From a virus (lineage: Duplodnaviria > Caudoviricetes), in the IMG/VR virus record IMGVR_UViG_3300048591_000469, positions 1 through 55,601 of that record: DNA of 55,601 nt, one strand, 5' to 3'. The notes below the pieces were generated by a model. That model was given only the letters and a program-made list of their open reading frames with translations. It was not told where the DNA came from and made no database searches. Both the position numbers and the translations under genes were made by a program. Position 1 is the first letter of the stretch. Each line of letters begins with the position of its first letter. This document shows, one piece after another, positions 1,554 through 54,285 of this stretch.

Positions 1554-1901
1554 ATGCGAATTCGCTTCCTGCAAGACTACCGGGGACACCTGACCGGCGA
1601 AATGTTTTTCAACCGAAATGACGAGGTCGACGACACGACCCTGCCGACCGCCGCCGCGCTGGTCGCCGAGGGACGGGCGGAAGACATCACGCCGGAAAGC
1701 CCCGCACAAGGCGACGACGGCGAAGGGTCCGACCCGCCCGCTGACCCGCCCGCCCAGAATGGCGCTGACGGGCAAGGGACGCCCACAGCGACGCCCGAGA
1801 CGCCCGAGGCGGGTTCCACTACCAGCGACGCCCTGCCGTCGCCCGCTGCCCCTGAGACGGACCTTTCCGGCGAAGTGCAAGTCAAGCGGTCCCGCAAGTA
1901 A
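1554..1901 (+). CDS. Small head-associated hypothetical protein
   Basis: MRIRFLQDY...AAALVAEGRAE followed by an acidic/Pro tail, typical of small genes after capsid genes. Start reassigned to ATG 1554 after GGGGA. Confidence 0.7.
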   Translation: MRIRFLQDYRGHLTGEMFFNRNDEVDDTTLPTAAALVAEGRAEDITPESPAQGDDGEGSDPPADPPAQNGADGQGTPTATPETPEAGSTTSDALPSPAAPETDLSGEVQVKRSRK

Positions 1902-1904
1902 AAC

Positions 1905-1929
1905 GCCCCGAGCAAGTCGGGCTTTGTTC
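1905..1929 (+). terminator. Intrinsic terminator-like hairpin
   Basis: GCCCCGA-GCAAG-TCGGGGC followed by TTTGTT. Confidence 0.55.
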
Positions 1930-1946
1930 TAGGGAGACAACGAACG

Positions 1947-2297
1947 ATGCCACTTTACAATAAAAAGAACAGCAAGAGCGTTATCCGTCAGGGGCTGGTC
2001 GCCGCCGCCGCCAATGGGGCGGTCCCGATCATGGCGGGGACCGTCCTCATCACCAAAGGCTCCATCTGCGCCCTGACCCTGGCCGCGCCGACGACCGAAG
2101 AGGACGGCACGCAACTGACCATTGTCTCGACAACGGCTTACGCCCACACCGTCACTCAAGCCAGCCCGGGGTTCAACGGGGCGGGCGGAAGCGGCGATGT
2201 GGCGACCTTTGCTGCTGCAGCGGGCGGGTCTTTGACCGTGATCGCCTACGGCGGCAAATGGTACGTCGCCAATCTCCAGGGCGTCACCCTGGCGTAA
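1947..2297 (+). CDS. Putative capsid decoration/head-fibre-like protein
   Basis: 116 aa, rich in Ala/Gly/Thr and likely beta-strand; located between capsid and adaptor; AGGGAG SD. Confidence 0.55.
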   Translation: MPLYNKKNSKSVIRQGLVAAAANGAVPIMAGTVLITKGSICALTLAAPTTEEDGTQLTIVSTTAYAHTVTQASPGFNGAGGSGDVATFAAAAGGSLTVIAYGGKWYVANLQGVTLA

Positions 2298-4511: not shown

Positions 4512-4524
4512 ACACGGACCTTTT

Positions 4525-4914
4525 ATGGCGATCATGCGACACGAATGCCCCGTCGAGGGGCATGCCGACAACTTCGTAGAAATCTCGGATTCCTGGTCCC
4601 GGCGTGACTTCCGCACGTTCTGGGAAAGCAATGACCCGGTTCAACTCGTCGACCTTTATCAACGCAAGACCGCCGCATGCAACCTGACGCCGGTCGACCC
4701 GGGCGTTCCACCCATCACCAAAGGGGCGCAGATCGTCGAGGAAACGCTCGACACCCTCGACATGCGGGTCTTTATGTGGTTTCAAGCCGCATTCCTGGTC
4801 GCGGCGAACGAGGTCCAGAACCTGGGAAAAGCCGAACAGCGGCGCTTGTACTCGCCCTCCGCAACGAAGGCGGACGAGGAAAGCACGATGACGCCTACAT
4901 CGATGCCATCCTGA
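4525..4914 (+). CDS. Tail assembly chaperone (gpG-like)
   Basis: Lies between tube and tape measure; contains slippery G GGA AAA at 4824-4830. Confidence 0.75.
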   Translation: MAIMRHECPVEGHADNFVEISDSWSRRDFRTFWESNDPVQLVDLYQRKTAACNLTPVDPGVPPITKGAQIVEETLDTLDMRVFMWFQAAFLVAANEVQNLGKAEQRRLYSPSATKADEESTMTPTSMPS

Positions 4915-5138
4915 TGCGCTTGTTCCCCGGGCGAACCCCGGAGGAACTCGACGACATCGACATGGCTCGGTTGTCCCGGGCGTTAGACGCACGGCGAATC
5001 GAAGGGCTGGAGAATAAGCGCCGCCTCTGGCTCGACAAGGAAATCAAGACGATTGACCCGGACGATTGGCTGGCGATTCAAGAATACGAAGGCTGGTTAG
5101 ATGGCGAACGAAACCGAACGGATGCAGTTGATCATTGA
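4824..5138 (+). CDS. -1 frameshift extension of the tail chaperone (gpGT-like)
   Basis: GGGAAAA heptamer in the correct phase (CTG GGA AAA). The -1 frame stays open to 5138 (LFPGRTPEELDDIDMARL). Confidence 0.75.
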   Translation, partial: GKSRTAALVLALRNEGGRGKHDDAYIDAILMRLFPGRTPEELDDIDMARLSRALDARRIEGLENKRRLWLDKEIKTIDPDDWLAIQEYEGWLDGERNRTDAVDH

Positions 5139-7293
5139 CGCCCGCAATCAGGCTCGAGGACCCGTCGAGCAGGTGCGGGCGTCGTTGCGCGGGTTGCGCG
5201 ACGACGCCAATCAGACGTCCGACACCCTCTCCAAAGTGTTGACCGGCGGCTTGGTCGGCGGGTTGACGCTGATCGGCATCGGCCAAATCGCACAGTTGGG
5301 CGGGGCGCTCGTACAGTTTGGCGAGAAGGCGGACAGCGCCCGGATTGTCAAACAAGTGTTTCAGGACATGGCGTCCAGCATCGGCGAGTCGGGCGACTCG
5401 TTGCTGAAGAAGCTGCAGGAAGTAAGCCAGGGGACGATCTCGAACCAGGGTCTATTGGCAAGCGCCAGCCGAGCGTTCATCCTGGGCGTCGCCAAAGACG
5501 GCGACGAACTGGCGAAGATTCTCGAGGTCGCTGTGGCACGCGGCCAATCCCTCGGGGTGAGCGCCGAACAAGCGTTCAGTGACATCGTCCTCGGTATCGG
5601 GCGCATGTCGCCGGAAATTCTCGACAACCTGGGCATCGTGACCGACGGGCAAGCGACCTTCAAGGCCTACGCCGAAGCCATCGGCAAGACGACCGAGGAA
5701 CTGACCGAAGCCGAGAAGAAACAAGCCCTCATCAACAAGGTCATCAACGAAGGGGCGAGTGCGACGACGTTCTCGGCGTCAGCGTGGGAACAATTGACCG
5801 CCGCAATGGCGAACGCGTCCGACGTCCTGGCGGCGAAGGCGGGTCCAAGCCTGACCAAGTACGCCCAACAAGCCGCCGACATTATCAACCAAGCCATCGC
5901 CGCCCAGGAGGAATACGACCGTTCTCTGGCGGACGCTGACCTGTGGCAACGGGGCGCACAAATCACCTTCGAGACGGGTCAACTCGACCTATTGCGGGAA
6001 GCGTCGAAGGCGCTGCAGGTCGGGACGCCCGAATGGTTGCGGATGGAACGGGCGATCATCGACACGACCGACCGCATCGTCGCCTTCGGTGAGGAATACA
6101 ACGCCGCCGCCCAAATCACCGGCGCACCCATGATCGACCTGGACCATTTGCGCCAGGGCGTTGTCGGGTTCTACGAGGCGGGCGACGCCATGACGGAGGT
6201 CGGCAGCGATGCCGCCGCCGCCGCCGCCGAGGTCGAAACGCTGGTCAAAGAAATCCTCAAGGTCGACGCGTCCAAAAAGAGCATCAGCGACGTGGTCCAG
6301 GGTCGGCTCTTCGACCTGTCCCTCAAGCGGGCGGGCGGTGACTACGTCAAAGCCATCGGGTCGAACGAGCAGCAGTCGATGGACATCATCCGCCAAGCCA
6401 ACCTTTTGATGTTGCAGGGCGGCAAGGACCTGGAATACCGGGACCAAGTCATCATCCCGTCGTTGATCAACAAAGAGCAGGATTATCAACGTTCCATCGA
6501 AAAGACGTCAACGGCGGTTACAAAGGTCAACGAGGAATACCGCAAGCTCGAAAGCTCTGTCTCGTCGGTCCTAAGCAACGCCCTCGACCCGGGCGTCGGC
6601 GTCGACCCCGACAAGCTACTCGAGGAAAAATTCGCCTTCCGGGAAAGCGCCATCAACGAGAACGCCCGCCGCTTGGCGGATCTGGCGGTCAACGGCTTCA
6701 AGGACCAGGGCTGGCTCGACGAATTCAAAGCCCAAGCGCCGAACATCTGGGAAGCCCTACGCTTGGCCCAGAACCCGCAGGAAGAAGCGGCGTTTATGTT
6801 GCGTGAATTCCAGGACGGGCTACGCCCCGAGCTAATTGACAAGGACCGGGCGAAAGACCTGGTGCGGCGCATGCTTTTGGGCGATCAGAACATGGCGGAA
6901 CTCGCCAAAGAAATCGCCCTCGAACTCGCCGGGGAGATGGGCATTTCCGTCGACGAAGCCCTCGGCGTCGCCAAGAGCGCCCTGGGCGTCAAGGGCGGCG
7001 GCGGGCTAGACATCGCCGGGGCGGACGCCGGGACCGCCATTATTGGCGGGGCGGAAGCCGAAGCCCTGGCGTCGGGCGACAAAATTGCGGGCGGGCTGAT
7101 CGAAGCCCTGAGTAAAACATTTGAGCGACTCACCCAAGCGGGGCGGGACGCCGGAAACGCCTGGGGTGACGGGTTCCTGGAGAAGGTCGGCGAAGGGGTT
7201 CCTGCCGCCCTGATTACCATTCTCACCAACCTGATCACACCTGGCGTCGAAGCGAAACTCGCCGCAGCGTCGACGTTGACGGGAGCAGAATAA
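5101..7293 (+). CDS. Tape measure protein
   Basis: 730 aa, Ala-rich and helical; GIGRMSPEILDNLGI motif; follows the chaperones. Confidence 0.9.
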   Translation: MANETERMQLIIDARNQARGPVEQVRASLRGLRDDANQTSDTLSKVLTGGLVGGLTLIGIGQIAQLGGALVQFGEKADSARIVKQVFQDMASSIGESGDSLLKKLQEVSQGTISNQGLLASASRAFILGVAKDGDELAKILEVAVARGQSLGVSAEQAFSDIVLGIGRMSPEILDNLGIVTDGQATFKAYAEAIGKTTEELTEAEKKQALINKVINEGASATTFSASAWEQLTAAMANASDVLAAKAGPSLTKYAQQAADIINQAIAAQEEYDRSLADADLWQRGAQITFETGQLDLLREASKALQVGTPEWLRMERAIIDTTDRIVAFGEEYNAAAQITGAPMIDLDHLRQGVVGFYEAGDAMTEVGSDAAAAAAEVETLVKEILKVDASKKSISDVVQGRLFDLSLKRAGGDYVKAIGSNEQQSMDIIRQANLLMLQGGKDLEYRDQVIIPSLINKEQDYQRSIEKTSTAVTKVNEEYRKLESSVSSVLSNALDPGVGVDPDKLLEEKFAFRESAINENARRLADLAVNGFKDQGWLDEFKAQAPNIWEALRLAQNPQEEAAFMLREFQDGLRPELIDKDRAKDLVRRMLLGDQNMAELAKEIALELAGEMGISVDEALGVAKSALGVKGGGGLDIAGADAGTAIIGGAEAEALASGDKIAGGLIEALSKTFERLTQAGRDAGNAWGDGFLEKVGEGVPAALITILTNLITPGVEAKLAAASTLTGAE

Positions 7294-7652
7294 TGGCCCT
7301 TGTTGCACCGACCCTGAATGGCGTCACCCTGCCGCACGTCTCCCGTTTCGACTACGTTCGCCTCAAGCGGGGCGGGCGCTTGACCCTCGCCAGTGGCAAG
7401 GTCGCAACGTCCTTGATCACCGGGTCAAAGCACGTCTTCACATTGTCATGGTTGGCGCTCACCGAAGCCAACATGACGACCATCGAGGGCGCAGTCGACG
7501 CCGCCGAAGGGGCTGACGTGACCTTTCGGTCGCCGCGTGATTTGACCTATACGGTCCGGGCGGCGGCGGACAGCGACGGGCTGCAAGTGCAAGCGGTCCG
7601 GGCGGCGGGCGGGCTACGGTTCAACGTGACGATTGTCCTGCGGGAGCAGTGA
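7293..7652 (+). CDS. Putative distal tail protein
   Basis: 119 aa directly after the tape measure with TAATG coupling; FTLSWLALT pattern. Confidence 0.6.
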   Translation: MALVAPTLNGVTLPHVSRFDYVRLKRGGRLTLASGKVATSLITGSKHVFTLSWLALTEANMTTIEGAVDAAEGADVTFRSPRDLTYTVRAAADSDGLQVQAVRAAGGLRFNVTIVLREQ

Positions 7653-7655
7653 CCT

Positions 7656-9131
7656 ATGCCTCTTGTGAACTGGCGCTTGTTGATTGATTGGACTGTCACC
7701 GGCGACTACGTCGACGAATCGGCGCGCCTCGTTTCGGCCAATGGCAGCGTGCGTTATGGCGCTCCCGGCAGCGGCTTCATCACGCCTCGGAATACGGTCG
7801 ACCAGATGACGTTGACCCTTCGCAACACCGACCAATACTTCAGCCCGTTCAACGTCAGCGGTCCCATGTACGCCGGTCAAGCCTACCATGCGCCGGTGGA
7901 ACTCGACATCCAACTCGACGGCGGGTCCTTTGTACGGGTCTTTACGGGCGTTCTGAAGACACCCCAATACACGGTCGCCAACGAATCCGCACCCGGCACG
8001 GTCGCCTTAGAAGTCCGCAGCAGGGACGAACTCCTGCTCAACAAACGGGTATCGACGGGCATCGGGCTATTCCGCAACCTCAACGACGACCTGGCGTCCG
8101 AACGGGAAATCATCGAAGAATTCCTGATCGACAGCGGCATGCTGGCGGGAACCGACTGGACCAGCGACACCCTGGACCCGGGGCTTTTTGTCATTCCCTG
8201 GGCTTGGATGGATGACGAAAGCCCGGTCGAGGAGGCTTGGCAGCTTGCGGCGGCATGCGGCGGGCAATTCTACTGCGACGTCGACGGTCTATTCACCTAC
8301 GAGAATTTGACCCACTGGTTGCGCCAAGACCTGGTGACGCCGGTCGAAACGCTGACGCCCGACACCTACGCCGCCCTGGCGTCCCAATACAACGACCGGG
8401 ACCTCTACGCCGAGGTCATCGTCGAAACCAGCCCGCGCAGCCTGGGACCCATCACCGATCTATGGTCCCTCGAAGCGCCGCTGACCATTGGGTCGGGCGA
8501 AACCCGCACGGTGACAGCCCGCTTCCGCCAACCCTCGCCGGTCGTGACCGGCTTCGAGGTCGGCGCAGCGACGTCGGGCGGCGTCAACATGTCCAGCGTC
8601 CTATTGGTCAACCCGACCTATTACGCGCAGCGCGCCGAATTCGAGATCACGAACCCTGACCCTGCCTACGCCGTCGACCTGCTGACCCTGATCGTCAACG
8701 GCATCGCCCTCATCGGACGCCCCTCCCAAGAGCGGCGAGCAACGTCGACGGACCCCTTCTGGGGCAAGGGCAACTTGCGCCCGGGGCGGACGAAACTCGT
8801 CCGGGGCAACCCCTACCTGCAGACGGATTTTCAAGCGGGCGTCACGGCGACCTTCCTGCTCGACCGGCTCCAACTCCCGGCGCTACATCATCGCTGTTCG
8901 GGGCTTTCCGGCGTCCCGACCCGACGCCTGGGGCAACATGTCGCCGTCAACGATAGCCAATTCACCGGCGGCGCACGGTCGGCGCTCATCACCGCCATCA
9001 CCTTCCGCTTAGACAAGGCGGGCTTTTGGCAGGACCTAGAACTGATCGACATCGAGGACTGGCCCCAAACCAATTACTTTAAACTCGGGTCCCACAACCT
9101 CGACACGGCGGGCTACAAATTGTTTTATTAG
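7656..9131 (+). CDS. Putative baseplate hub/tail tip protein
   Basis: 491 aa; LTLRNTDQYFSP and GGQFYCDVDGLFTY motifs; synteny. Confidence 0.65.
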   Translation: MPLVNWRLLIDWTVTGDYVDESARLVSANGSVRYGAPGSGFITPRNTVDQMTLTLRNTDQYFSPFNVSGPMYAGQAYHAPVELDIQLDGGSFVRVFTGVLKTPQYTVANESAPGTVALEVRSRDELLLNKRVSTGIGLFRNLNDDLASEREIIEEFLIDSGMLAGTDWTSDTLDPGLFVIPWAWMDDESPVEEAWQLAAACGGQFYCDVDGLFTYENLTHWLRQDLVTPVETLTPDTYAALASQYNDRDLYAEVIVETSPRSLGPITDLWSLEAPLTIGSGETRTVTARFRQPSPVVTGFEVGAATSGGVNMSSVLLVNPTYYAQRAEFEITNPDPAYAVDLLTLIVNGIALIGRPSQERRATSTDPFWGKGNLRPGRTKLVRGNPYLQTDFQAGVTATFLLDRLQLPALHHRCSGLSGVPTRRLGQHVAVNDSQFTGGARSALITAITFRLDKAGFWQDLELIDIEDWPQTNYFKLGSHNLDTAGYKLFY

Positions 9132-9149
9132 CGGGGAAGGAACGCACCA

Positions 9150-9581
9150 ATGCCATTTGAATCCATGACGACGTTAAGCGCCGGTCAAGTCTTGTCCGCC
9201 GAATGGCTAAATACCCTGGGGCGCAACAGCGAATATTTGCACGGTCTGATGAACCAGATCAACCCGCCCTTCGCCGGGGAATCCCAATCGGGCTTCACGT
9301 TCGACGCCAATGACTGGTTTATTCGTCACCGTCACCGTTACCTACACTGGCGCATCAAGGTCGAGCGTAGTGTTTCCCGTTGGCGAGTCTGGTATGACTC
9401 GACGCTGCTGGTCGACATTGACCCACCCTGGACGGCGGGAACCCATTCGGGCTACATCGACCTCAACTCTTTTTCATTCACTGAGAACCAGTGGTATCGG
9501 TTGCGGGTCGCCATCGACCTCGCCAGCGACGACACGACCGAACTGCGCGTAGAATACCTGTTCGAATCCGAGAAGGTCTAA
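9150..9581 (+). CDS. Minor tail protein
   Basis: N-terminal GQVLSAEWLN motif typical of tail/fibre anchors. Confidence 0.55.
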   Translation: MPFESMTTLSAGQVLSAEWLNTLGRNSEYLHGLMNQINPPFAGESQSGFTFDANDWFIRHRHRYLHWRIKVERSVSRWRVWYDSTLLVDIDPPWTAGTHSGYIDLNSFSFTENQWYRLRVAIDLASDDTTELRVEYLFESEKV

Positions 9582-9941
9582 ATGGCGTATACCGTCCCGC
9601 ATCGCTTCGCCCACCTTGAAGCGCCAAGCGCCGCCAACCTAAATGCCCTCAAGGCGAACCTCGAAGCCATCGACACGAGCATCGAGGATCGTGGGCGCAA
9701 CTATGCCGTCGGCGTGAACCGCACGACGACGCATGGCTTCTTCTTCGTTCACATTCACCGTTGGCTGCACATCTCCGGGTCCTACGAGATTCTGGACCCG
9801 TCGGGCGTCGGCGAGAACATCACCGGCGGCGTCGACGGGGAGCTTGCTGTGGTCGACCTGGACGGCATCGAATGGATGTCGCCGGGTAAAATCTACGCCG
9901 TCAAGGACGCCCTCTTCGCCGCCGAGGATTACGATGCCTAA
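9582..9941 (+). CDS. Minor tail protein
   Basis: N-terminal PSAANLN motif; shares the F..H.HR.LH motif with the upstream ORF. Confidence 0.55.
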   Translation: MAYTVPHRFAHLEAPSAANLNALKANLEAIDTSIEDRGRNYAVGVNRTTTHGFFFVHIHRWLHISGSYEILDPSGVGENITGGVDGELAVVDLDGIEWMSPGKIYAVKDALFAAEDYDA

Positions 9942-42355: not shown

Positions 42356-42397
42356 GGTGCGGGTCCTTTCGGGTTCGGGTTCGGTTTCGTCCTACGT

Positions 42398-42479: not shown

Positions 42480-42535
42480 GGAGGGCAAGCCAGATTGGCG
42501 GGGTTAGTGGAGGATTTTGGACAAGGAAGGTACAC

Positions 42536-44286: not shown

Positions 44287-45737
44287 GTCGACGCCGCAAG
44301 GCGGACGCCCCGGGAACCGTCACATACGACTTCTCGAAGCTCTGCGGTTTCACCGCCAAGCAGTTGACGGCGACCCAGGTCGCCGACCGCCATCGCTATA
44401 CCCTGTTCGGCGGGTCCCGAGGACCGGGCAAATCCTACTGGCTTCGCTGGTATATGTTGCGGTTGCTCTTCATCTATTTTCAACACAGGAAGCGCGAGAA
44501 CGTGCGCGTTATGTTGGGGTGCGAGGACTACCCGACTCTCTACGAGCGGCAGATCGTGAAGATCATCGCCGAGTTTCCGAGCGACGTCGGGACCTATTGG
44601 CCTTCCAAGACCGAGTTTCGCCTTGCGCCCCGCTTCGGCAGCGGGGTCCTGGCGCTACGTAACCTGTTGGAACCCGACCGTTACCAATCCGCCGAGTTCG
44701 CCGCCATCGGCATCGACGAGTTGACCAAGAACCCGGAAACGACCTTCAACACCCTGCGCGGGTCGTTGCGTTGGGCGGGCATCCCGGACACCCGCTTCGT
44801 CGCCGCAACCAATCCCGAGGCGAATTGGGTCCGACGTTACTGGATCGAGCGGGACTTTCCCGAGGCACTACGCCCGGACGCCGACCAGTTCGCCTTTGTC
44901 CCGGCGCTCCCGGACGATAACCCGCATCTGGACCCGTCCTATTGGCGCATGCTCGAAACGTTGCCCTCCGAGGCGATGCGCCAAGCATGGCGCTACGGGG
45001 ACTGGTACGCCGCCGCCGAAGGGCGGGTCTATGGCGAGTTCAACGCCGCCAACCTGACCGAGGATGAACCCGACCCGGACCTGCCCATCGAGGTCGCCAT
45101 CGATGACGGCTATTTCCCGGACCCACGCGCAACGCTCTTCATCCAAAAGCGGGCGGACGGGTCGGTCCTGGTCTTTGCCGAGCTATACGAGCGCCAGGTC
45201 CTGGAGGAGTCGACCATTGAACACATCAAGGACTACGTCGAAGCGTTGAACGCAACGCTTTATCAAACCTCCCTGATCGACCTGGTCGACGCCGTCGTCA
45301 AGCCCGAAGGCGAAAGCGTCCTGGACGTTCTGGACGTTGCGCCCGGGTTCTACCGGATGCCGCAGATGGCGATTGTGTCCCACGAGGCGATTCAATTGCG
45401 GCATCGGTTGACCGCCGCCGGGATTCCCGCCCGCAACTGGATGGGCGTCAAGCGTCCCGCCGGGACGAGCAGCATGCGCCTCGCCGCCATCAACTTGACC
45501 CGGCGCATGATCTGCGACGGAAAGGGCGTCCGCCGCATCTTCGTTCACACCCGCTGTCGCAACCTGCGCGACGAAATCACGGCGGGCTACAAATATCCGG
45601 ACGGCGAGAATTCGCCCTCGGCGATGCCTGCCGACGGCAATGATCACGCCTGCAACGCCCTGGAGTCGTGGGTCTGGTATCGGTTGGGAGGGGCAGCCAT
45701 GTCGGCGGAAAGCATGGTCGACTTCCCGGAAACATAG
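44283..45737 (+). CDS. terL: Terminase large subunit
   Basis: GGSRGPGKS, IGIDE, ATNP, DNPHL, IDDGY..P, NDHACNA. Confidence 0.92.
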   Translation: MSRRRKADAPGTVTYDFSKLCGFTAKQLTATQVADRHRYTLFGGSRGPGKSYWLRWYMLRLLFIYFQHRKRENVRVMLGCEDYPTLYERQIVKIIAEFPSDVGTYWPSKTEFRLAPRFGSGVLALRNLLEPDRYQSAEFAAIGIDELTKNPETTFNTLRGSLRWAGIPDTRFVAATNPEANWVRRYWIERDFPEALRPDADQFAFVPALPDDNPHLDPSYWRMLETLPSEAMRQAWRYGDWYAAAEGRVYGEFNAANLTEDEPDPDLPIEVAIDDGYFPDPRATLFIQKRADGSVLVFAELYERQVLEESTIEHIKDYVEALNATLYQTSLIDLVDAVVKPEGESVLDVLDVAPGFYRMPQMAIVSHEAIQLRHRLTAAGIPARNWMGVKRPAGTSSMRLAAINLTRRMICDGKGVRRIFVHTRCRNLRDEITAGYKYPDGENSPSAMPADGNDHACNALESWVWYRLGGAAMSAESMVDFPET

Positions 45738-45751
45738 GAGGGACTTTTTCA

Positions 45752-45958
45752 ATGTCTGCCCAGGAGTTGGTCACGTTCATCGCCCTGATCGACCCGGAAA
45801 CCCATCACAAGATCGGGCGCTATTGCCCGTCGACGGGCGACCTGGTCATTTTTAAGCGCCAGCGGGACGCCCGGTTCAACCTACACCGGCTCACCGCCGC
45901 CGTTAAAATTGACACGACCCCTTGCGACTCGCAAGGGGCTATGCTAGAATCCGAGTAA
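45752..45958 (+). CDS. Small hypothetical protein between terL and portal
   Basis: AGGAGG SD; 68 aa. Confidence 0.6.
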   Translation: MSAQELVTFIALIDPETHHKIGRYCPSTGDLVIFKRQRDARFNLHRLTAAVKIDTTPCDSQGAMLESE

Positions 45959-46025
45959 ACATCATCTTGTGGCGCAAACCGGCGCACCCTTTTTCCTGGG
46001 TGCGCCTTTTTTTTGTTCGTGGGGA
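45922..46025 (+). promoter_or_regulatory. Late promoter plus leader terminator (copy 1)
   Basis: TTGCGA-17 nt-TAGAAT with TGn; GGCGCACCC/GGGTGCGCC stem followed by T8. Confidence 0.75.
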
Positions 46026-46031
46026 TGACCG

Positions 46032-49000
46032 ATGACCCTAATTGACCGCATCGCCGCGATGCTTGGCTACACCAAAGCGCAGCGTAAGCCCCTGCCGCCG
46101 ACCTGGATGTCGCAGACCGCCGACTACCTGGACACCGAACCGCCCGCCGACCTGGAAGTTCACTATGACCTGTACGAAAAGCTCTCCTGGCTGCAGGTCG
46201 CCATTGGACGGGTCGCCGACACGGCGGCTTCGGCCAAGTTCGAGGTTTTCAAACATAGCAAGGAGAAGGAGTCGGCCATTCAAGCCCACGACTTCGAGAA
46301 ATTGCTTCAGAACCCGAACCCCGACACCGACCGTCACCAACTAATGCATGGGACGTTTCTCTACCTCAGCCTCGGGGCAGCGGCTTGGTGGCTCAACCGC
46401 AGCGGTCCCGACGTCCCGCCCGATGAGATTTGGCTCATCCCGCCGCACCAACTGCGCGCCGTTCCCGACGAACGCATGTCGGTCCGGGGCTACCTCTACA
46501 ACCCCGGCGACGGGCGGGAGATTCCCCTGGAACCCTGGGAGGTTGTCCACTTCCGCAAGTTCAACCCCAAATCCCGCTACATCGGCCTCCCAACCGCCCG
46601 CGCCGTCGACCAGATTTCCCAGGGCGACATTGCGATGCAACGGTGGAACCGGAACCTGTTCGCCAAAGACAACGCCAAGTTACCCGGCGCATTGGCGTTC
46701 TCGGACCCCATCGATGACGTCACCTGGCGAACCATCAAGCAGGACATCAACGATCAGCACGGCGGGACCAAGCGCAGCCTCATGATGCTTCGCAACGTCG
46801 GGCAGGGCGGCGTCCAGTGGCTCAACATGGCGCTTTCCCAGACCGAAATGCAATTCCTCGAAAGTCGGGTCGCCAACAAGGAGGAGATCTTCGCCTTGTT
46901 CGCCCCGGGCTTGGCGTCGGTCCTGGCGGTCAACGCAACCGAAGCGAACGCCGTCGCCGGGAAGCGCACCTTCATCGAGTTCGGAGTTTGGCCCACCATG
47001 ACGGCGGTCGCCGAACGCATCACCTCGCAAATCCTGCCCTCCTACGGTGACGACCTGGTCGGGCGCTTCGAAGATATCCGGGTCACGGACCGGGCGCTCA
47101 AGCTCCAGGAGATGAACGCCTACGCGATGGTTCACACCGTCGACGAGGTCCGCAAGGAGTTTTATCAAGCCAAGCCCATCGGCGACTACCGGGGCGACTT
47201 GCTGCTGGCCGAAATCCCGCAGGGCATCACGCCCGACCCCGATGCCGAGGAACCCGCGCCGCCGCCGCAAAGTCCCGCACAAAGCCCCTTCGACGAACAA
47301 GCGCCCGAGGACCCGTCAAGCCCACAGGAACCGCAGGACACGGCGATTGGACCCGATGCCGTCGGTCAGGACCTCGACAACCCCGACGCCCCGCCAGAGG
47401 ACCCGCAAATCGAAGCCAAGAGCGCCGAATTGCGCCGTTACCGGCGATGGGTCGCCAAGCGCATTTGGAAGGCATCGTTCGACCCTGACGCCTTCGAATC
47501 GCCGTTCCTCACGACCGCCGACCGCCAAGCCGTCTTGGCCGAGGCGGGTTGGCACACCTGGCCCGATCACGAATTCTTCGACGCCACGAAGGGCGGACCC
47601 GGCAGCGGCAATTGGGGACACGACGGGCGCAGAGGGCAACGGGGCGGCTCACGCCCGGGCGGCGGGCTGCACCTGCAGCGGCTGGACCCGGCGTCAACCG
47701 TTGACGAGCGTAAGCAAGCCTTCGGCGTCTATCGCCAGTTCGTCCCGACATTGTCATCCCCTGAGCGCGCCGCACGCGAAGCGCACGTCAACCGCATCGT
47801 CGCCAATTCCGGCACGGTCGGCACACAGGGGCAAATGCGCCCCTTCGTGGGCGAAGCGCAGACCGAGATGGCGAAGGCGCTCATGATGCACGACAGCCGC
47901 GTCCTGGAGCAGGTCAAACAGATCCGCGTCGCCCACAACGCCGCCGCATGGCAAGCCGAAGCGGTCGCCGCCGGAATGAAGCCCGCCAGTGCGCCGAACG
48001 TCCTGGGTTTCACCTACGCCATGAAGGGTCAAGCGGGCTACGGAACCATCTGGCTCCAGTCCTACGGCAACAGCCAGCGGGAACGCATGACCCTCCACCA
48101 CGAAATCGGACATACGGTCTACGGGGCGACGACGCAGCAGGGTCGCCAAGACTGGATCGACTTCTACAATGCGGGCGGCAACCATCACACTGCCTATTCG
48201 GGGACCAACCGGGCGGAGGGTTTCTCCGAATCCTACGCGGGCTGGTTGTGGGCGAAGGGAACGCAAGCGCCCGACGCCGTCACCCGGTCGAACCTGAGCG
48301 CCGTCCCGTCCCTCGCCGCTTACCGAGACACGTTTAATTCGGTCGCCAATGTCATCGCCGCCATCCCGGCGTCAACGCCCACCAAAGCCGCCCGCATCAC
48401 TCGTGCGGACCTTTTCGGCGACGTGAAGGCGCTCACCCGCACCAACCTCCTCGCCGCCCACGAGTCGACGATCAACGTCGATTGGCCCAAGTTGAGCGCC
48501 GCCGCCCAATCCCAATGGCAGGTACGCCACGAAAAGAGCGACCTTCCGGGCGTCCCGGGCGACGCCCGAGTCTGGTTCGCCGACGTGGTCGTCGCCCACG
48601 ATGCCGCTTGGCAGGGTGACGGCAACGGCAAGAGTCTATTCATCGAGGCGCTTGCGCCCTGGGTCGCCGCCCTCGAAACCGCACAGACGGCGCTTCGGGG
48701 CAAGGGTCCGCTCAAGGCAGGATTTTCAAACCCTCTCCGGGTCGCCTCGGCTCGTTGGGAGTCGCTTCCGCCCGACCGCCGTCGCCAGTGGGTTGACGGC
48801 TACGATGATCTGGATTGGGTCGGCAAACCGCCCCATCCCGTCGAGGGGTTCGCCGATGCCGTCGTTGCCCACCGGGCGCTCGACGGGGCGTCACCCGACG
48901 AGATGATGGACCTCGAGGGGTTCCAGCCCTACCGGGACCTATTCGGTCGCTTAGGGACGGTCCTGGACCCTAAGCCGGGGCAGTCCGCCGCCCCGACCAA

Positions 49001-49898
49001 AGGCGGACCCGGCAGCGGCAACTTCGGTCATAAGGGTCGCCCCGGGTTTCGGGGCGGCAGTGTTGCGGGCGGCGGGTTGGGCGCAATCGGCGTTGATCGC
49101 ACGGCAACGCCCGACGAGCGCCGCAACGCCGCAGCCGCATTCCGGCAGAAAGCGCCGGTGACGGTCCCGACCCAGGACCCGAAGCGGGCGAAACTACTCG
49201 CCTCGACGACCTTCGAAGCGTTCGGTTCCACCGACGCCGAGGTCGACACTGCATTGTCAAGCATTGGCTTGACCCGGGAGGATGTCACCTACATGATGGC
49301 GCTCGACGGGTTCAACGGCGAGGTCGCTTCTTTCTTGCAGGGCGGGAAGCTGTTCGTTGCGGGCGAATACACCCTGGAGAGCAATCCGAACGTGACGGCG
49401 ACTGTGATGCGTGGCTTTTACCAAGAAGGCGACGAATGGCACGTCGACCACATGAAATTCGGCATCGACGGCATCCATCACGGTCGGGGAACCGCCCAGG
49501 ACCTCTACGCCCGCCAGATCGAAACTTACAAAGCGGCGGGCATCGTCGCCGTTCACACCCATGCCGACATCGACGTCGGCAGGTACGCGTGGGCGAAGAT
49601 GGGCTTCGAATACGACGAAAGCGGCGGGAGCAACATCGCCCGCAAAACGAAGCAATTCGAGCATTGGGCGAAGAAGCTCGGCATCGACCCACCTGACGGC
49701 GGCTGGCCTACGTTCCAACGGCCCCATGATTTCGCAACCTACAAGCATCCCGACGGGCGCAAGGTCAACGCCAACGATATGGGCAACTGGCAGGGCAAAT
49801 TCCTCCCGGGCGATTACGACATCGGGAAGGCATTCATGCTCGACGACAACGGACACGGCGACTGGTACGGCGTTCTGCCGCTCAAGGGGCAACCATGA
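46032..49898 (+). CDS. Portal protein (HK97-type, ~aa 1-395) fused to zincin-protease and GNAT-like domains
   Basis: LLQNPNP, EVVHFR.FNP..RYIGL, MQFLESR portal motifs; HHEIGH plus NRAEGFSE; HGRGTA...GRYAWAKMGF. Confidence 0.9.
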   Translation: MTLIDRIAAMLGYTKAQRKPLPPTWMSQTADYLDTEPPADLEVHYDLYEKLSWLQVAIGRVADTAASAKFEVFKHSKEKESAIQAHDFEKLLQNPNPDTDRHQLMHGTFLYLSLGAAAWWLNRSGPDVPPDEIWLIPPHQLRAVPDERMSVRGYLYNPGDGREIPLEPWEVVHFRKFNPKSRYIGLPTARAVDQISQGDIAMQRWNRNLFAKDNAKLPGALAFSDPIDDVTWRTIKQDINDQHGGTKRSLMMLRNVGQGGVQWLNMALSQTEMQFLESRVANKEEIFALFAPGLASVLAVNATEANAVAGKRTFIEFGVWPTMTAVAERITSQILPSYGDDLVGRFEDIRVTDRALKLQEMNAYAMVHTVDEVRKEFYQAKPIGDYRGDLLLAEIPQGITPDPDAEEPAPPPQSPAQSPFDEQAPEDPSSPQEPQDTAIGPDAVGQDLDNPDAPPEDPQIEAKSAELRRYRRWVAKRIWKASFDPDAFESPFLTTADRQAVLAEAGWHTWPDHEFFDATKGGPGSGNWGHDGRRGQRGGSRPGGGLHLQRLDPASTVDERKQAFGVYRQFVPTLSSPERAAREAHVNRIVANSGTVGTQGQMRPFVGEAQTEMAKALMMHDSRVLEQVKQIRVAHNAAAWQAEAVAAGMKPASAPNVLGFTYAMKGQAGYGTIWLQSYGNSQRERMTLHHEIGHTVYGATTQQGRQDWIDFYNAGGNHHTAYSGTNRAEGFSESYAGWLWAKGTQAPDAVTRSNLSAVPSLAAYRDTFNSVANVIAAIPASTPTKAARITRADLFGDVKALTRTNLLAAHESTINVDWPKLSAAAQSQWQVRHEKSDLPGVPGDARVWFADVVVAHDAAWQGDGNGKSLFIEALAPWVAALETAQTALRGKGPLKAGFSNPLRVASARWESLPPDRRRQWVDGYDDLDWVGKPPHPVEGFADAVVAHRALDGASPDEMMDLEGFQPYRDLFGRLGTVLDPKPGQSAAPTKGGPGSGNFGHKGRPGFRGGSVAGGGLGAIGVDRTATPDERRNAAAAFRQKAPVTVPTQDPKRAKLLASTTFEAFGSTDAEVDTALSSIGLTREDVTYMMALDGFNGEVASFLQGGKLFVAGEYTLESNPNVTATVMRGFYQEGDEWHVDHMKFGIDGIHHGRGTAQDLYARQIETYKAAGIVAVHTHADIDVGRYAWAKMGFEYDESGGSNIARKTKQFEHWAKKLGIDPPDGGWPTFQRPHDFATYKHPDGRKVNANDMGNWQGKFLPGDYDIGKAFMLDDNGHGDWYGVLPLKGQP

Positions 49899-50737
49899 TC
49901 ATCGAAGCGGGACCGAAAGACCGCCCACCCGGGGACACCGACATCGAATTCTGGGGCGTCGGTCCCGGCGAGGACGGCATCCTCCCCTATTGGGAGATTT
50001 TCAACCTGCCCGCCCCGACCTGGGCGAAACCGCCGGTTAAGGGCGGACCCGGGTCAGGCAACTTCGGACATAGAGGTCGCCCTGGCTTTCGGGGCGGCAG
50101 CGTCGCGGGCGGGCGGGGCGGCGGGGCGGCGCTCAACGCCGAGCGAACGATTGGAACGCTGGTCAACGCCGCTCAGGGGCGCACCTTCGGCGACTTCGAC
50201 TTCGAGACGATTCCCGACGACTACACCGACTGGAACGCCAGCCTTAGCCCTGACGAGCGCAGCGCCATCACCTATTACGTCGGGGCGGGTTACGCCCTGA
50301 TCAACCGGCGCTTACGGGCGGAGGATACGTCTAACGCCAAAACCAATGACCGGGTCCGCTTGCTCGATGCGGCGCTTGCCCGCAGCGAAATACCCGCCGA
50401 CGGCATGCTCTATCGCGGCATCACAGGGCGACCCTTCCCCGAGGAACCCGGGGCGGTCTTTGCTGATCTCGGCTTTTCGTCGACGTCGGTCAACCCCGGC
50501 ATCGCCGACAACTTCAGCCAATCGGCCCGGGTCAACGACCCCAATAACGCCGGACCCGTCAAGGACTCCCAGGTCATGCGAATCAAGGTCATGAAGGGGC
50601 AACGGGGCGCATACGTGTCGAATTTAGGGATGGCGCTCGAGGACGAAATTCTCCTGCCGCGTGGGTCACTCTTCAAGGTCGAAGCGGTCACAAAAGATGC
50701 CAATCGAACCATCATAGACGTGATATACTTGGGGTAA
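49895..50737 (+). CDS. ADP-ribosyltransferase, R-S-E (VIP2/C3/Alt-like) class
   Basis: Y..INRRLR, LYRG, GFSSTS, EDEILLPRG. Confidence 0.9.
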   Translation: MIIEAGPKDRPPGDTDIEFWGVGPGEDGILPYWEIFNLPAPTWAKPPVKGGPGSGNFGHRGRPGFRGGSVAGGRGGGAALNAERTIGTLVNAAQGRTFGDFDFETIPDDYTDWNASLSPDERSAITYYVGAGYALINRRLRAEDTSNAKTNDRVRLLDAALARSEIPADGMLYRGITGRPFPEEPGAVFADLGFSSTSVNPGIADNFSQSARVNDPNNAGPVKDSQVMRIKVMKGQRGAYVSNLGMALEDEILLPRGSLFKVEAVTKDANRTIIDVIYLG

Positions 50738-50738
50738 T

Positions 50739-50921
50739 ATGAGCGACAAATTTTCAACCAACACCAGCGATCTAGTCTTTTTGCAGGACGATGCGGCCAT
50801 TGAGCGATTCCTCAAGGAACGAGGTCGCCCATTGACGTTGCCCGATTGGGCGCAACCCGTCGACCCCGCACCCACCGAACCCGACGCAGCTGAGGATGTC
50901 CCGGGAGGGCAACCGGCATGA
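50739..50921 (+). CDS. Small acidic protein after the ART gene
   Basis: 60 aa; starts 1 nt after the ART stop and overlaps the next start (ATGA). Confidence 0.6.
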   Translation: MSDKFSTNTSDLVFLQDDAAIERFLKERGRPLTLPDWAQPVDPAPTEPDAAEDVPGGQPA

Positions 50922-52537
50922 TCTTCGTGAATCCCTACACCGGCGAAGTGTACGAAGGGGAATTCCCCGCAACGGTTGAACTGCCCGAAGCCGAAGAAGG
51001 CGACAACGGGCTGATCGCAATGGTCCTGGCGACCTACGATGACGGCGATGTCGGCTACGCCGATGCCGTCGTGCGCTATATGTTCCTGCAAGGCTACGCC
51101 GCCCTCGAAGAGGACGATTTGTCCGACGAGGAACTGGCGGCGCTTGGGTTGGAACGGGACGAGGTCGACGACGTCGCCTTCGACGAGGACGAAGAGGGCG
51201 AGGACGAGGACGAAGAAGAGGACGAAGAGGACGAGGATTCTCAAACAAGACCGCCCGCCAAAGGCGGACCCGGGTCGGGCAACTGGGGACATCTGGGGCG
51301 ACGAGGCAACCGAGGCGGGTCCCGACCCGGCGGCGGACTGGCGCGCATCGGGACCGACCGGGCAGCGTCGCACAACCGGCGCGTCGAAGTCTCGTTCAGT
51401 TACCGCAACCGCCGCGCCGACGAGATGATCGCCGAGGGCGCAAACCCACCCGGCAACCGCATGCCGCGGGCGGGCAACTGGCATCCGACCACACCGAAGC
51501 CGCCCAAGCTCCCGGGGCAGGGCGGGCTACCAACGACGCCAAGACCGGGGACTGGTACGAATCGACCTCCCACCCCGCCAACGACGCCCACAGCCCCGCC
51601 CAAGCCGACGACGCCCAAGCCACCGGCCACACCCAAGCCACCGAAGCCGCCGGTCGCACCCAAGCCGCCCACACCGCCGCCCGCACCGCCGCCGCCGCCC
51701 AAGCGTCCCGGCCAAGATGCACCCGGCGAATTCGACGATCACTTCAAGAAATTTGGGAAGAGCGGCTACAAGCGGGACGGGCAAGAAATCGCCGACATCG
51801 TCGGGGCAAAAATCGACCCGAACGATGTTAACGGCTCGTACATGGCAGTTATACGGGGAGCGCAAGCATCCACTTCCCAGATGAAGGGCGTCGTCTCGCA
51901 AGACGACAACTTGGCGGTCATCATGGAGGCGCAGGGTTTTCATTCGAAGCCGAAGGTCGTCGACAAGGACGGCATGGACGAGATCATCCGGGACGGCGGC
52001 ATCGAGGTTTATCGTGGCGTTCGGGGCGGGTCCCTGCAGGGGACCGTCGACATGGTCCAAAGCTACGCCACCGGCGACCATTTCGTCGGGCAGGGCATTT
52101 ACGGCAACGGAACTTACACCGCCGAGGACTACTCGTTCGCGAAGGGTTACGCCAATCAGTACGCCAACGGCGTGATGCGTATCGCGCTCCACAAGGATGC
52201 GAAGGTCATCGACTACCCTGCCGCCAAAGCGGCAACCGATGCCCTCAGCCGCTCGAAAGCGAAGAAGACCGTTGCCGACCGTGCGGTCGTCGCCGACAAC
52301 GTCGGGCGATGGGCGGCGCTCAACGGCTACGATGCCATCCGGGTCAACGTGCAAGCCGAGAATTACGGCGGCGTCGGTCACTTCTTCGTCATCCTGAACC
52401 GGGGCGCAGTCGCTGTCCAGAACCCGAAGGACGGGGACGTCGCAGATCCGGGCTACCGACCGGCGGTCACGAATAAATACGTCCCGCAAAACACAATCCC
52501 AAACCCGAAGCCGCCCCTGCCAAAGGCGACCTCGTAA
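50918..52537 (+). CDS. Acidic leader, Gly-rich tag, Pro-rich linker and a second ART-like domain
   Basis: EVYRGV, GQGIYGNGTY......AKGYA, GYDAI, FVILNR resemble ART-fold strands; the terminal catalytic Glu is not evident. Confidence 0.7.
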   Translation: MIFVNPYTGEVYEGEFPATVELPEAEEGDNGLIAMVLATYDDGDVGYADAVVRYMFLQGYAALEEDDLSDEELAALGLERDEVDDVAFDEDEEGEDEDEEEDEEDEDSQTRPPAKGGPGSGNWGHLGRRGNRGGSRPGGGLARIGTDRAASHNRRVEVSFSYRNRRADEMIAEGANPPGNRMPRAGNWHPTTPKPPKLPGQGGLPTTPRPGTGTNRPPTPPTTPTAPPKPTTPKPPATPKPPKPPVAPKPPTPPPAPPPPPKRPGQDAPGEFDDHFKKFGKSGYKRDGQEIADIVGAKIDPNDVNGSYMAVIRGAQASTSQMKGVVSQDDNLAVIMEAQGFHSKPKVVDKDGMDEIIRDGGIEVYRGVRGGSLQGTVDMVQSYATGDHFVGQGIYGNGTYTAEDYSFAKGYANQYANGVMRIALHKDAKVIDYPAAKAATDALSRSKAKKTVADRAVVADNVGRWAALNGYDAIRVNVQAENYGGVGHFFVILNRGAVAVQNPKDGDVADPGYRPAVTNKYVPQNTIPNPKPPLPKATS

Positions 52538-52576
52538 ACGTCCAGGCGCACGAATCGCAAGCAAAGGAACAAGCAG

Positions 52577-52900
52577 ATGATTACACCCGACGACAGCCGG
52601 GAATTGGCTCGGATTTTCAACCTGATCGGCAACGGGCTGACCTCCGCCGACAAGGACGCGCTGCTCGACGCCGCCCTTGCCGCCGACTCCATCGCCAAGA
52701 TGCCCGCCCCGCTCAAGGCGAAGCTCGTAGCCGCCGCCCTGCGGGGCAAGACCCAAGAGGAATTCCTCGCCCTCGACGAAGCCGCCCAACGGGCGCTGCT
52801 TGGCCCGAGCGACGTCGGCGGTGACGGCGACGAAGAGGAGGACGAGGACGAGGACGAACCCGAACCCGTCGCCAAAACGGCCCGCCGCTACTATCCATGA
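52577..52900 (+). CDS. Small protein with acidic tail
   Basis: 107 aa; AAGGA SD; ends EEEDEDEDEPEPVAKT. Confidence 0.6.
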   Translation: MITPDDSRELARIFNLIGNGLTSADKDALLDAALAADSIAKMPAPLKAKLVAAALRGKTQEEFLALDEAAQRALLGPSDVGGDGDEEEDEDEDEPEPVAKTARRYYP

Positions 52901-54285
52901 TGTCCCTGCACCCCGACCCTGTCGGACGCAATGCTCCTTCCCTTGCTGGCGACCTGGCGGTTAAAACCCGCCAGGTCGTGCCACATCTGGACGGAAACGA
53001 CGTCGAACGGGAAGCCCTCGAAGCCCGTCATGCGACCGCCCTCGAGGGCGCTTTCCGCAAAATCATCCGGGCATTGGTCCCACCCGGCACGACCGCCGAG
53101 TCGCTGGCGGACCAGGGAGCCGTTGCGCGGACCTTTACGGCGTCCCTGCAGCCGCTCTATGACGCGTGCTACACCATGCTCCGGGACGCCGCCATGTTTG
53201 GCGCTTCGATTGGGCTGGAGCAGGTCGAAGCCCTGCAAATCGCCCCGGCGAAGGCGGACATTGTCATTGCCGACCTGACCGACTGGTCGATGGTCAACGA
53301 CGACGTCGTCGCATGGCTGACCAACCCGAACGCCAATTACACGCGCCAACTCGTCGAATCCATCGGCCAAAATTCGGCGAGCCAGGTCTACCGACTCGTC
53401 AATGCGTGGGTTCAGGACGGTCGCCCGTTGAACGCACTGGTCGCCGACCTGGAAACTATGCCCTTCTCGCCGCAGCGGGCGCGGCTGATCGCCACAACCG
53501 AAGTTACCCGGGCATTCGCCCAGGGCAAAAACATCGCTTGGCGCAGGACCGGCGTCGTCGAGCGCCGTCGCTGGCACACCGGCAACGACGAACTGGTCTG
53601 CGAGGTCTGTCAACGCCTTGACGGGCGGGAGGTTGGCTTGGACGAACCCTTCGATGACGTCGGGCGCATCATGTATCCGCCCGCACACCCGCGCTGCCGT
53701 TGCACCGTGCAACCCGTCATCCCGGTTTCGTCGCCGGTAAGCACCGACTACACGTCACCCGGCCTACGCGACCCGGTCATTACTTTTTCAAACCGTCGCA
53801 ACCAGGATGACGACCGCTTGAGTCTGAGCGGCATTCCCTTCCGTCAAGCTCCTGCTGCCGCATGGGGTAAAATCCCTGATCGGGCGTTGCCGTCCGAACC
53901 GTATGACCTGCCGCCCCTCACGCCGACCGCACGACGACGGGGCGTCGGCGTCCTCGTCGTGGAAGAGGACGGGCGGGTCTGGGTTGTAAAGACGGACGAT
54001 GATGACATGTACGAGATTCCGACCGTCGCCGTCCCGAAGGGGCTGACGTTGCAACAAACCGCCCTCTGGCACGCATACCAGGCAACGGGGTTGATCGTCG
54101 ATTTGGTCGACTACGTCGTCGACAGCCCGGTCGACGGCATCGTCACCCGCTACTATGTCGCCAAGCGCAGGGCGGGCGCTCCCTGGGGCGCACGCAGCAA
54201 GCGATGGGTTTCCCTGGCGACAACCCGTCACGCCGCCAGCTACGCCAACCGCATGGCGGACCGCAACATTCTGCGTCAATTCTAG
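52897..54285 (+). CDS. MuF/SPP1 gp7-like minor head protein with a C-terminal degenerate NUDIX-like domain
   Basis: RARLIATTE, W.T..DE.VC..C..LDG, PPAHPRCRC; C-terminal GVGVLVVEEDGRVWVV...P......TA......TGL. Confidence 0.85.
   Translation: MMSLHPDPVGRNAPSLAGDLAVKTRQVVPHLDGNDVEREALEARHATALEGAFRKIIRALVPPGTTAESLADQGAVARTFTASLQPLYDACYTMLRDAAMFGASIGLEQVEALQIAPAKADIVIADLTDWSMVNDDVVAWLTNPNANYTRQLVESIGQNSASQVYRLVNAWVQDGRPLNALVADLETMPFSPQRARLIATTEVTRAFAQGKNIAWRRTGVVERRRWHTGNDELVCEVCQRLDGREVGLDEPFDDVGRIMYPPAHPRCRCTVQPVIPVSSPVSTDYTSPGLRDPVITFSNRRNQDDDRLSLSGIPFRQAPAAAWGKIPDRALPSEPYDLPPLTPTARRRGVGVLVVEEDGRVWVVKTDDDDMYEIPTVAVPKGLTLQQTALWHAYQATGLIVDLVDYVVDSPVDGIVTRYYVAKRRAGAPWGARSKRWVSLATTRHAASYANRMADRNILRQF

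Follow-up and report, generated by a model that had tools for sequence, protein, structure and literature searches.

Why does one asymmetric sequence of about 20 bp recur 16 times along a phage genome, inside genes as well as between them? The question is raised by a DNA stretch of 55,601 bases, here called the window, which is a complete virus record of IMG/VR (IMGVR_UViG_3300048591_000469) with a 127-bp direct terminal repeat and a G+C content of about 63%. Judged by its genes, the window is a temperate tailed phage with an integrase. An initial annotation, made from the letters alone, had described the motif and likened it to the stoperators of mycobacteriophage L5. The conservation analyzed here indicates that the motif is most likely a sequence-specific recognition site with a 20-bp core, GTGCGGACCTTT(N)CGGCGAC, and weaker conservation over about 40–60 bp. 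By analogy with stoperators, we tentatively read the copies as an array of sites for a protein that would act on transcription in one direction.

Conservation, orientation, and spacing of the motif copies

All 16 copies listed in the initial annotation are present, at the coordinates given there or at most 3 bases away, 12 on the plus strand and four on the minus strand (Table 1), and about five weak copies accompany these strong ones. With up to three mismatches allowed, the 20-mer GTGCGGACCTTTNCGGCGAC matched the window 11 times, compared with 0.06 ± 0.24 times in dinucleotide shuffles, and none of 100 shuffles reached 11. The 15-base core CGGACCTTTNCGGCG, with up to two mismatches, matched 15 times against an expected 1.55 ± 1.05. 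In five of the 16 copies (4512, 14044, 19618, 24906, and 25967), the T-run is longer by one base (TTTTA or TTCTN), and an ungapped search therefore misses them; each of the five is located at a gene border or in noncoding DNA. The 25-nucleotide flanks are conserved too, with mean pairwise identities of 9.74 on the left and 8.26 on the right (6.74 ± 0.25 for random sense 25-mers), and the MAFFT consensus, CCCCnGGCCCTnGTGCGGACCTTTnCGGCGACCnGnnGGTC, extends past the 20-mer. The core carries a direct repeat, GCGGACC-N5-GGCGACC, and no internal dyad was evident on reading. Some pairs of copies share their flanks: 14044 and 25967 agree at 18 of 25 positions on the left, 43830 and 24906 at 16 of 25 on the right, and 35670 and 39771 over about 50 nucleotides.

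Selection on the nucleic acid rather than on the encoded protein had been proposed, together with a codon-shuffled background as the check. Within open reading frames (ORFs), the 20-mer matched seven times, whereas 300 synonymous-codon shuffles gave a mean of 1.03 and a maximum of 4; the corresponding figures for the core were 11 matches against 3.26 ± 1.52, with a maximum of 9. The excess over codon-aware shuffles therefore marks a real DNA-level signal, as the annotation had supposed. The peptides it quoted are also correct. Two of the three frames are used, five and three times, giving VRTFTAT, VRGFTAT, VRTFAAT*, ARTFTAS, and LRTFMAT in one frame and TDLSGE, TDLSGD, and ADLFGD in the second, and the third is unused.

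Genes were called by third-position G+C together with Pfam and PHROGs. Among the 15 strong copies that could be scored, 14 have the orientation of the genes around them (binomial p about 0.001), the copy at 17913–17932 being the exception already pointed out in the annotation, and the leftward block at 20178–25671 contains minus-strand copies only. The spacing is more even than chance: the coefficient of variation of the gaps is 0.53, compared with 0.92 under random placement (P = 0.008), and of the seven gaps met in turn between 28921 and, across the genome ends, 1855, six measure 4.06–4.72 kb. Seven copies are noncoding, although noncoding DNA accounts for no more than about 17% of the sequence (p = 0.011). 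Module borders are occupied by the copy at 39771, which faces convergent genes, by the pair at 28856–28875 and 28921–28940 beside the origin-like region, and by the copy at 25967 between divergent predicted promoters. Some copies, as had been noted, abut start codons (4525 and 17934) or promoter-like sites (19628–19655 and 26025–26052).

The other nine copies are inside ORFs. Four of these are less than 60 nucleotides from the ORF end, four are in mid-ORF (at about residue 230 of the helicase, 168 of the primase-polymerase, 790 of the portal ORF, and 76 of the MuF-like ORF), and one follows a hydrophobic N-terminus. The suggested preference for linkers and C-terminal tails is seen in the helicase linker, the interdomain stretch of the primase, and the tails of the methylase and the polymerase. 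In an alignment of 11 homologues, the linker that ends with the helicase copy is hypervariable, both in its length and in its sequence. The MuF stretch with its copy aligns to relatives with a gap of only one residue, and this copy therefore arose in place, without insertion of a cassette.

A search of related phages, as suggested in the annotation, did not recover the motif. It was found in none of 41 terminase loci (at most 57% identity), 30 capsid loci (at most 64%), and 27 loci retrieved with a helicase profile (at most 44%), and a comparable array was found in none of four scanned relative records (two of them over the first 40,000 bases) or the seven best helicase loci. The relatives without motif or array include phages whose capsid or terminase is 50–64% identical and phages whose helicase is 40–44% identical. 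The phage has no close cultured relative: megablast against cultured phages gave no near-identity match to the window, and the terminase match with the best coverage (93% of the protein) had 26% identity, shorter matches reaching 32%. Exact-pattern scans returned 23 stretches from IMG/VR, at least 120 stretches from genome contigs, and at least 120 stretches from metagenome contigs. Among the matches listed, every stretch of the three collections held one motif match, and the flanks read for the IMG/VR and genome-contig matches were unrelated to the flanks of the motif. The metagenome loci listed gave no blastn match to the window and only short scattered tblastx fragments (27–36 bits), and none had more than one match to the position weight matrix at the threshold used. 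A host genome rich in the motif may lie beyond the matches listed for the two contig collections. A full-text literature search for GCGGACCTTT gave nothing related among the matches listed. The helicase protein (32356–35169) is found letter for letter on six contigs and the protein of the orphan ORF at 36017–36670 on seven, this record included in both counts; near-identical copies of the phage therefore recur in public assemblies.

A proposed polar site array and its alternatives

The motif is real and enriched, it is under selection at the DNA level, its copies are oriented and evenly spaced, and they have no RNA fold in common. The sequence conserved over 20–40 bp, the strand matched to transcription, the even coverage, the occupied module borders, and the toleration inside essential genes are together best fitted by conditional polar DNA-binding sites. 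We infer that a phage-encoded, lineage-specific DNA-binding protein would occupy the sites and that the bound protein would stop or slow RNA polymerase arriving from one direction. The array would then serve as a conditional roadblock, or as an insulator against read-through between modules, and may help to hold the prophage silent. Stoperators operate in this way, on polymerase arriving from one direction and only with their protein present (PMC9283540, PMC6550527, PMC5559632). Within long genes, the sites would fall in linkers and tails, the parts of the protein that can accommodate them. The helicase, primase, portal, and MuF genes have copies in mid-gene, where a constitutive stop would do harm; a factor-dependent block is therefore favored.

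Several observations weigh against such an array. The copies at 25967 and 28921 are upstream, not downstream, of predicted promoters, and therefore only a block of read-through would be possible there. A rigid DNA contact in two parts does not sit easily with the extra base pair that five copies have at mid-core, and the flanks shared between pairs of copies reach far outside the likely contact, hinting at copying or at a larger element. Nine of the 16 copies are in ORFs, whereas stoperators are mainly intergenic according to the available portion of PMC5559632. The absence of the motif from all relatives examined leaves the array without comparative support. In addition, a tblastn search of the window with the L5 repressor gp71 reached an E of 0.5 at best and hence found no homologue; the small ORFs considered as candidate binders had no supporting family in Pfam, PHROGs, or NCBIfam; and the 173-residue ORF at 22135–22656 gave nothing below an E of 0.48 against the PDB. 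The rare AT-rich words that the predicted early promoter regions have in common, described below, belong to the same side.

The binders nominated in the initial annotation did not gain from these searches. The three supposed ribbon-helix-helix proteins (26096, 36017, and 39894) matched no ribbon-helix-helix family in Pfam, PHROGs, or NCBIfam, the supposed helix-turn-helix protein (22135) had only sub-threshold winged-helix matches, and the methylase ORF showed no ParB domain at E ≤ 0.01. For the ORF at 36017–36670, a word-indexed search found only the protein itself, and a full HMMER search of 1.84 billion representatives found three weak relatives (E of 1.3e-10, 2.4e-4, and 7.7e-4). Its single-sequence AlphaFold model was poor (mean predicted local distance difference test score, 58) and was not used for a fold search.

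Three predicted sigma-70-like early promoter regions (25857–26052, 28994–29070, and 42393–42480) share the AT-rich words ATATGTAC, TGTACTTG, GTATTTACAG, TACGTGTAT, and ACATATTTGTA with its complement. Each occurs two to four times genome-wide and is unrelated to the motif, and they are likely to be conventional operators of early or divergent promoters. Within the three regions, words of this kind are shared by 26010–26052, 29000–29070, and 42395–42480. The only predicted promoter overlapped by the motif is that at 19628–19655. Since the predicted early promoters carry other words, the motif is not visibly their operator, unlike in L5; if an immunity repressor acts on the AT-rich words, a second protein would therefore be needed for the motif, again unlike in L5. 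At the overlapped site, TTTACG-16-TATAAT is followed after 6 nucleotides by the ATG at 19662 of a 138-residue ORF with a hydrophobic N-terminal stretch, and this layout (19628–19664) is as would be expected for a leaderless mRNA.

The copies might instead be promoter or activator sites, used by an unrecognized phage polymerase or by the host polymerase with the aid of a special sigma factor or phage activator, in the manner of the T7-like promoters of about 20 bp, which we consider unlikely. Promoters would be co-oriented with genes, as the copies are, and seven copies (1855, 14044, 19618, 24906, 25967, 28921, and 43830) stand 16–184 nucleotides 5' of a start codon. The divergent pair at 28856–28940, 46 bp apart, resembles back-to-back promoters, and the copy at 19618 overlaps a promoter-like first hexamer. 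GTC or GTT follows GGACC by 17–19 nucleotides in 11 of 17 copies, a layout that resembles the GGAAC...CGT of promoters for extracytoplasmic-function sigma factors. However, the strongest conservation is a contiguous 15-mer at the position expected for a spacer, and none of the 60 Pfam (58 distinct ORFs), 20 PHROGs, and 10 NCBIfam queries brought up an RNA polymerase or sigma-factor family; divergent factors could escape such queries. In the copies at 4512 and 20669, the next gene already starts within the motif, so that these copies cannot serve it, and neither the block at 39894–42287 nor the two genes that open the leftward block have a co-oriented copy upstream. Early, late, and lysogeny-side modules carry copies alike, so that no temporal class is defined. 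The promoters of T7-like single-subunit RNA polymerases do show contiguous conservation over about 20 bp, more than 10 copies, and co-orientation. The motif differs from them in tolerating an internal insertion, in its mid-gene and start-codon-overlapping copies, and in the absence of a phage RNA polymerase family among the queries. A sigma-54 site was ruled out because the GG-N10-GC spacing is wrong in 11 of the 16 copies and fits only the five with the extra base.

A signal in the transcript, single-stranded and either read by an RNA-binding protein or nuclease in processing, stability control, or the loading of a termination factor, or paired with complementary RNAs, would account for the strict dependence on the transcribed strand and for the tolerated 1-nucleotide insertion, and is likewise improbable. 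A C-rich, CGCCCGCC-like stretch is located 5' of 12 of 17 copies, and six of the 16 have a stop codon within about 50 nucleotides upstream. Upstream segments pair with the CGGCG half at -16.5 kcal/mol, compared with -14.1 ± 0.86 kcal/mol for random sense 37-mers, but swapping the upstream arms among copies leaves this energy unchanged (-16.2 kcal/mol), and there is therefore no covariation. RNAalifold over the copies gave 0 consensus pairs, and folds of single copies vary from one to another. Among the 16 folded copies, hairpins were noted at 14044, where GGACC has a possible pairing partner in an upstream GGGTCC arm, at 25967, and at 28921; a clear T-run (TTTTT) follows only the last of these, the first two being followed by TTCTT. 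The copies are not more stable than windows of matched G+C taken from this genome (z = -1.2), and Rfam gave no match at any of them even at E ≤ 5. A shared RNA fold or intrinsic terminator was ruled out on these results. Pairing with the phage tRNA-Arg was also discarded, its energy of -18.6 kcal/mol being no better than that of its reverse complement (-19.6 kcal/mol).

The two anti-oriented sequences also speak for an RNA-level role. The muramidase gene, which starts at 17934, has GGAAAGG from the complement of the copy at 17913–17932 exactly where its ribosome-binding site is expected, and the look-alike at 42357–42373 is arranged in the same way before the leftward ORF starting at 42355; both are hence complementary to all sense copies. 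A bolder reading has the sense copies in mRNA pairing with these two ribosome-binding sites (of the endolysin at 17934 and the ORF at 42355), and if it is true, lysis and another function would be coupled to overall phage transcription. On the other side, no small-RNA gene (promoter plus terminator) carrying the complement was found. The two start regions (17913–17939 and 42350–42373) have GAAAGG(T/A)CCGCACCATGACC in common, which is what would be expected of the motif complement serving as ribosome-binding site plus start.

Roles in DNA metabolism (a single-strand nick, priming or helicase loading, Chi-like protection, condensation or partition) seem rather remote. Site-specific single-strand nicks exist in T5-like and phiKMV-like phages, and the even spacing of about 4 kb across much of the genome, the flip of orientation at the origin-like region (28856–28875 on the minus strand, 28921–28940 on the plus strand), and the phage's own primase-polymerase and two helicase-like ORFs would all be in keeping with such a role. 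What speaks against it is that orientation tracks gene blocks rather than any genome-wide or origin-centered polarity: the plus-strand copy at 25967 is to the left of the origin-like region, and that at 19618 stands between the minus-strand copies at 17932 and 20669. The copies have no parS-like symmetry, and no ParB domain was seen at the threshold given above. Known Chi sites are 5–8 nucleotides long; with a 20-bp core and an orientation that follows gene blocks, the motif was rejected as a Chi-like or replication-polar word.

Least probable is a functionless selfish or neutral repeat spread by gene conversion or a small mobile element, as the flanks shared past the core (14044/25967, 43830/24906, and 35670/39771) could suggest, since such a repeat would not be expected to show even spacing and orientation bias, and the motif lacks the features of a mobile repeat of the repetitive extragenic palindrome or miniature inverted-repeat transposable element type, the MuF copy standing in relative-aligned sequence with no cassette-sized insertion, with no terminal inverted repeats, palindromic ends, or target duplications, no transposase-like family in the Pfam queries, and no copy in other genomes among the matches listed.

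Gene map, origin-like region, and a second motif

Table 1. Motif copies, genome modules, and second-motif copies in the window
Feature	Position	Strand	Remarks
Motif copy AGACGGACCTTTCCGGCGAA	1855-1874	+	TDLSGE, 27 nt before stop of ORF 1551-1901; 72 nt 5' of start 1947
Extra-base copy	4512-4532	+	Fills 13-nt spacer after stop 4511; its ATG is start 4525
Extra-base copy	14044-14064	+	Intergenic, 18 nt past stop of 1430-residue tail ORF
Anti-oriented copy	17913-17932	-	In C-terminal tail of ORF 17641-17937
Extra-base copy	19618-19638	+	Intergenic; overlaps first hexamer of promoter-like TTTACG-16-TATAAT, 19628-19655
Motif copy	20650-20669	-	LRTFMAT, after hydrophobic N-terminal stretch of ORF 20400-20795(-)
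Extra-base copy	24886-24906	-	Starts at stop of ORF 24906-25247(-); ends 48 nt 5' of start 24838
Extra-base copy	25967-25987	+	Between divergent promoter-like sites 25904-25876(-) and 26025-26052(+)
Motif copy, left of divergent pair	28856-28875	-	Beside origin-like region
Motif copy, right of divergent pair	28921-28940	+	Hairpin loop, then TTTTT; 5' of promoter-like stretch near 29040-29070
Exact-consensus copy	33046-33065	+	UvrD-like helicase ORF; VRTFTAT just before conserved helicase core
Motif copy, GGGGC variant	35670-35689	+	Primase-polymerase ORF, between Prim-Pol domain (residues 10-146) and zinc ribbon (residues 193-282)
Exact-consensus copy	39771-39790	+	4 nt before stop of last gene of rightward replication block; faces convergent block 39894-42287
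Motif copy	43830-43849	+	C-terminal tail of DNA methylase, 50 nt 5' of small-terminase-like ORF start 43900
Exact-consensus copy	48403-48422	+	About residue 790 of 1288-residue portal ORF, in extension past portal domain
Motif copy	53125-53144	+	About residue 76 of MuF-like ORF
Weak copy	1690-1704	-	
Weak copy	8001-8020	-	
Weak copy	8899-8913	+	
Weak anti-oriented look-alike GTGCGGGTCCTTTCGGG	42357-42373	+	Complement directly 5' of ATG 42355, ORF 42170-42355(-)
Weak copy, anti-oriented	47261-47280	-	3 mismatches; inside portal ORF
Capsid	29-1474		
Tape-measure and tail-fibre ORFs	5101-16765		
Muramidase	17934-19496		
Leftward block	20178-25671	-	Genes without assigned function
tRNA-Arg	26572-26645	-	
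Tyrosine integrase	26751-27746		
Noncoding origin-like region, 1.4 kb	27747-29124		Four GTTATCCCCA words, AT-rich stretch, 73-nt inverted repeats
Rightward replication block	29125-39794	+	AAA_24, UvrD-like helicase, primase-polymerase, DEAD-like ORF, Pol-beta-thumb ORF
Second leftward block	39894-42287	-	
Methylase, terminase, portal, ADP-ribosyltransferase, MuF	42536-55601		
GGATTKTCAA copies	3327, 5342, 8825, 14143, 20138, 21280, 27284, 38991, 39146, 48720, 52611	+	

Several features of the gene map deserve mention in their own right. The tRNA-Arg gene is full-length, has the anticodon GCG, and stands 105 nucleotides from the end of the integrase gene; its position could indicate the attachment site. 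The region at 27747–29124 is noncoding, lower in G+C, and replication-origin-like. Its four GTTATCCCCA words, at 28750–28813, are DnaA-box-like, being similar to the DnaA-box consensus TTATCCACA. The AT-rich stretch of the region is at 28353–28375, the 73-nucleotide inverted repeats (28251–28323 and 28686–28758) are 79% complementary, and GAATGGTGAAAT and GAATGAATGAA repeats are also present.

In the replication block, the ORF called at 38778–39794 is probably two merged genes: an ORF at 38699–39169 uses a different frame, and the Pol-beta-thumb match (residues 254–314 of the long ORF) comes after an ATG at 39158. The portal domain of the 1288-residue portal ORF ends near residue 375–520, likewise in relatives (region 46032–50737), and the remaining 770 or so residues matched no family except a weak PHROG of unknown function. 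The next ORF (49895–50737), flanked by those for portal and MuF, belongs by its match (E of 2e-25) with the ADP-ribosyltransferase exoenzyme family.

The window also carries a second asymmetric, strand-polar dispersed motif, GGATTKTCAA (longer form, GGGATTGTCAAAC), with 11 exact matches against 0.19 expected. All of them are on the plus strand, including two inside leftward genes, and its polarity therefore tracks the genome and not transcription. Four of its five best copies read I-V-K via rare codons. Eleven bases of this second motif, GGGATTGTCAA, match the stoperator consensus of Cluster A15, GGGGATTGTCAAG, as given in the available portion of PMC5559632.

Comparison with known systems

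The following comparison draws on the portions of the cited papers that were available. Stoperators are asymmetric and dispersed and have one orientation relative to transcription (PMC6550527, PMC5559632, PMC9283540), and repressor-stoperator systems are described for Cluster A mycobacteriophages (L5, Bxb1, and TipsytheTRex) and for R4-like Streptomyces phages (PMC6550527, PMC5559632, PMC9283540, PMC10276819). Like those phages, the phage of the window is temperate and has many asymmetric sites, mostly in one orientation and some of them in genes. The likeness drawn in the initial annotation thus stands for the anatomy (asymmetric, dispersed, and in one orientation) and falls for the repressor, the best gp71 match being that at E 0.5. 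The site is also longer than those of Cluster A, at least 20 bp compared with 13 bp, it has a 1-bp length variant, and nine of its 16 copies are in ORFs; the early promoter regions carry other, AT-rich words, and the roadblock is here an inferred one. Judged by these sequence comparisons, membership of the L5 family is rejected.

T1-like phages (T1, TLS, and Stevie) have 16–20 copies of a 21–22-bp direct repeat for which stoperator, enhancer, and UP-element readings have been proposed (PMC4319613, PMC11447400) and whose function the TLS authors list as open (PMC11447400). Copy number, length, asymmetry, and orientation with transcription are similar to those of the motif. However, the T1-like repeats are AT-rich and mainly intergenic, are found in virulent phages, in TLS stand 5' of start codons, and have a consensus (ATAGCAC at the 5' end, TAAAA at the 3' end) unrelated to that of the motif, which is intragenic in nine of 16 copies and belongs to a temperate phage. 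Phage-specific asymmetric motifs with 12–43 repeats are known from Cluster EC Microbacterium phages and the Nostoc phages A-1 and N-1 (PMC7302621, PMC4916379). The Cluster EC motif, an 18-bp asymmetric intergenic sequence in 12 copies, stands 21–30 bp 5' of start codons in small intergenic gaps, and the orientation of the Nostoc motifs is not consistent with that of the genes; the motif of the window differs on both counts. Among the groups compared, a repressor-stoperator mechanism is described, in the available portions, only for actinobacteriophage systems.

The general phenomenon is therefore known, and what is new here is the sequence, the longer site, the lack of an L5-type repressor, the even spacing, and the majority of copies in coding sequence. 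It is possible, if doubtful, that a lineage lacking cultured relatives has independently built a stoperator-like polar layer, with an unrelated 20–40-bp site, an orphan binder, intervals of about 4 kb, and linkers of essential proteins bent in their residues to carry the sites. The array adds a statistically strong new case in which spacing is more even than chance and over half of the sites occupy tolerant coding positions, and it shows how strongly such sites can shape protein linkers. If its binder is found, the array would provide, beside the actinobacteriophage systems, an independent system for testing polar roadblocks as a general means of silencing and insulation in temperate phages, and it might find use as a compact orientation-dependent transcription insulator.

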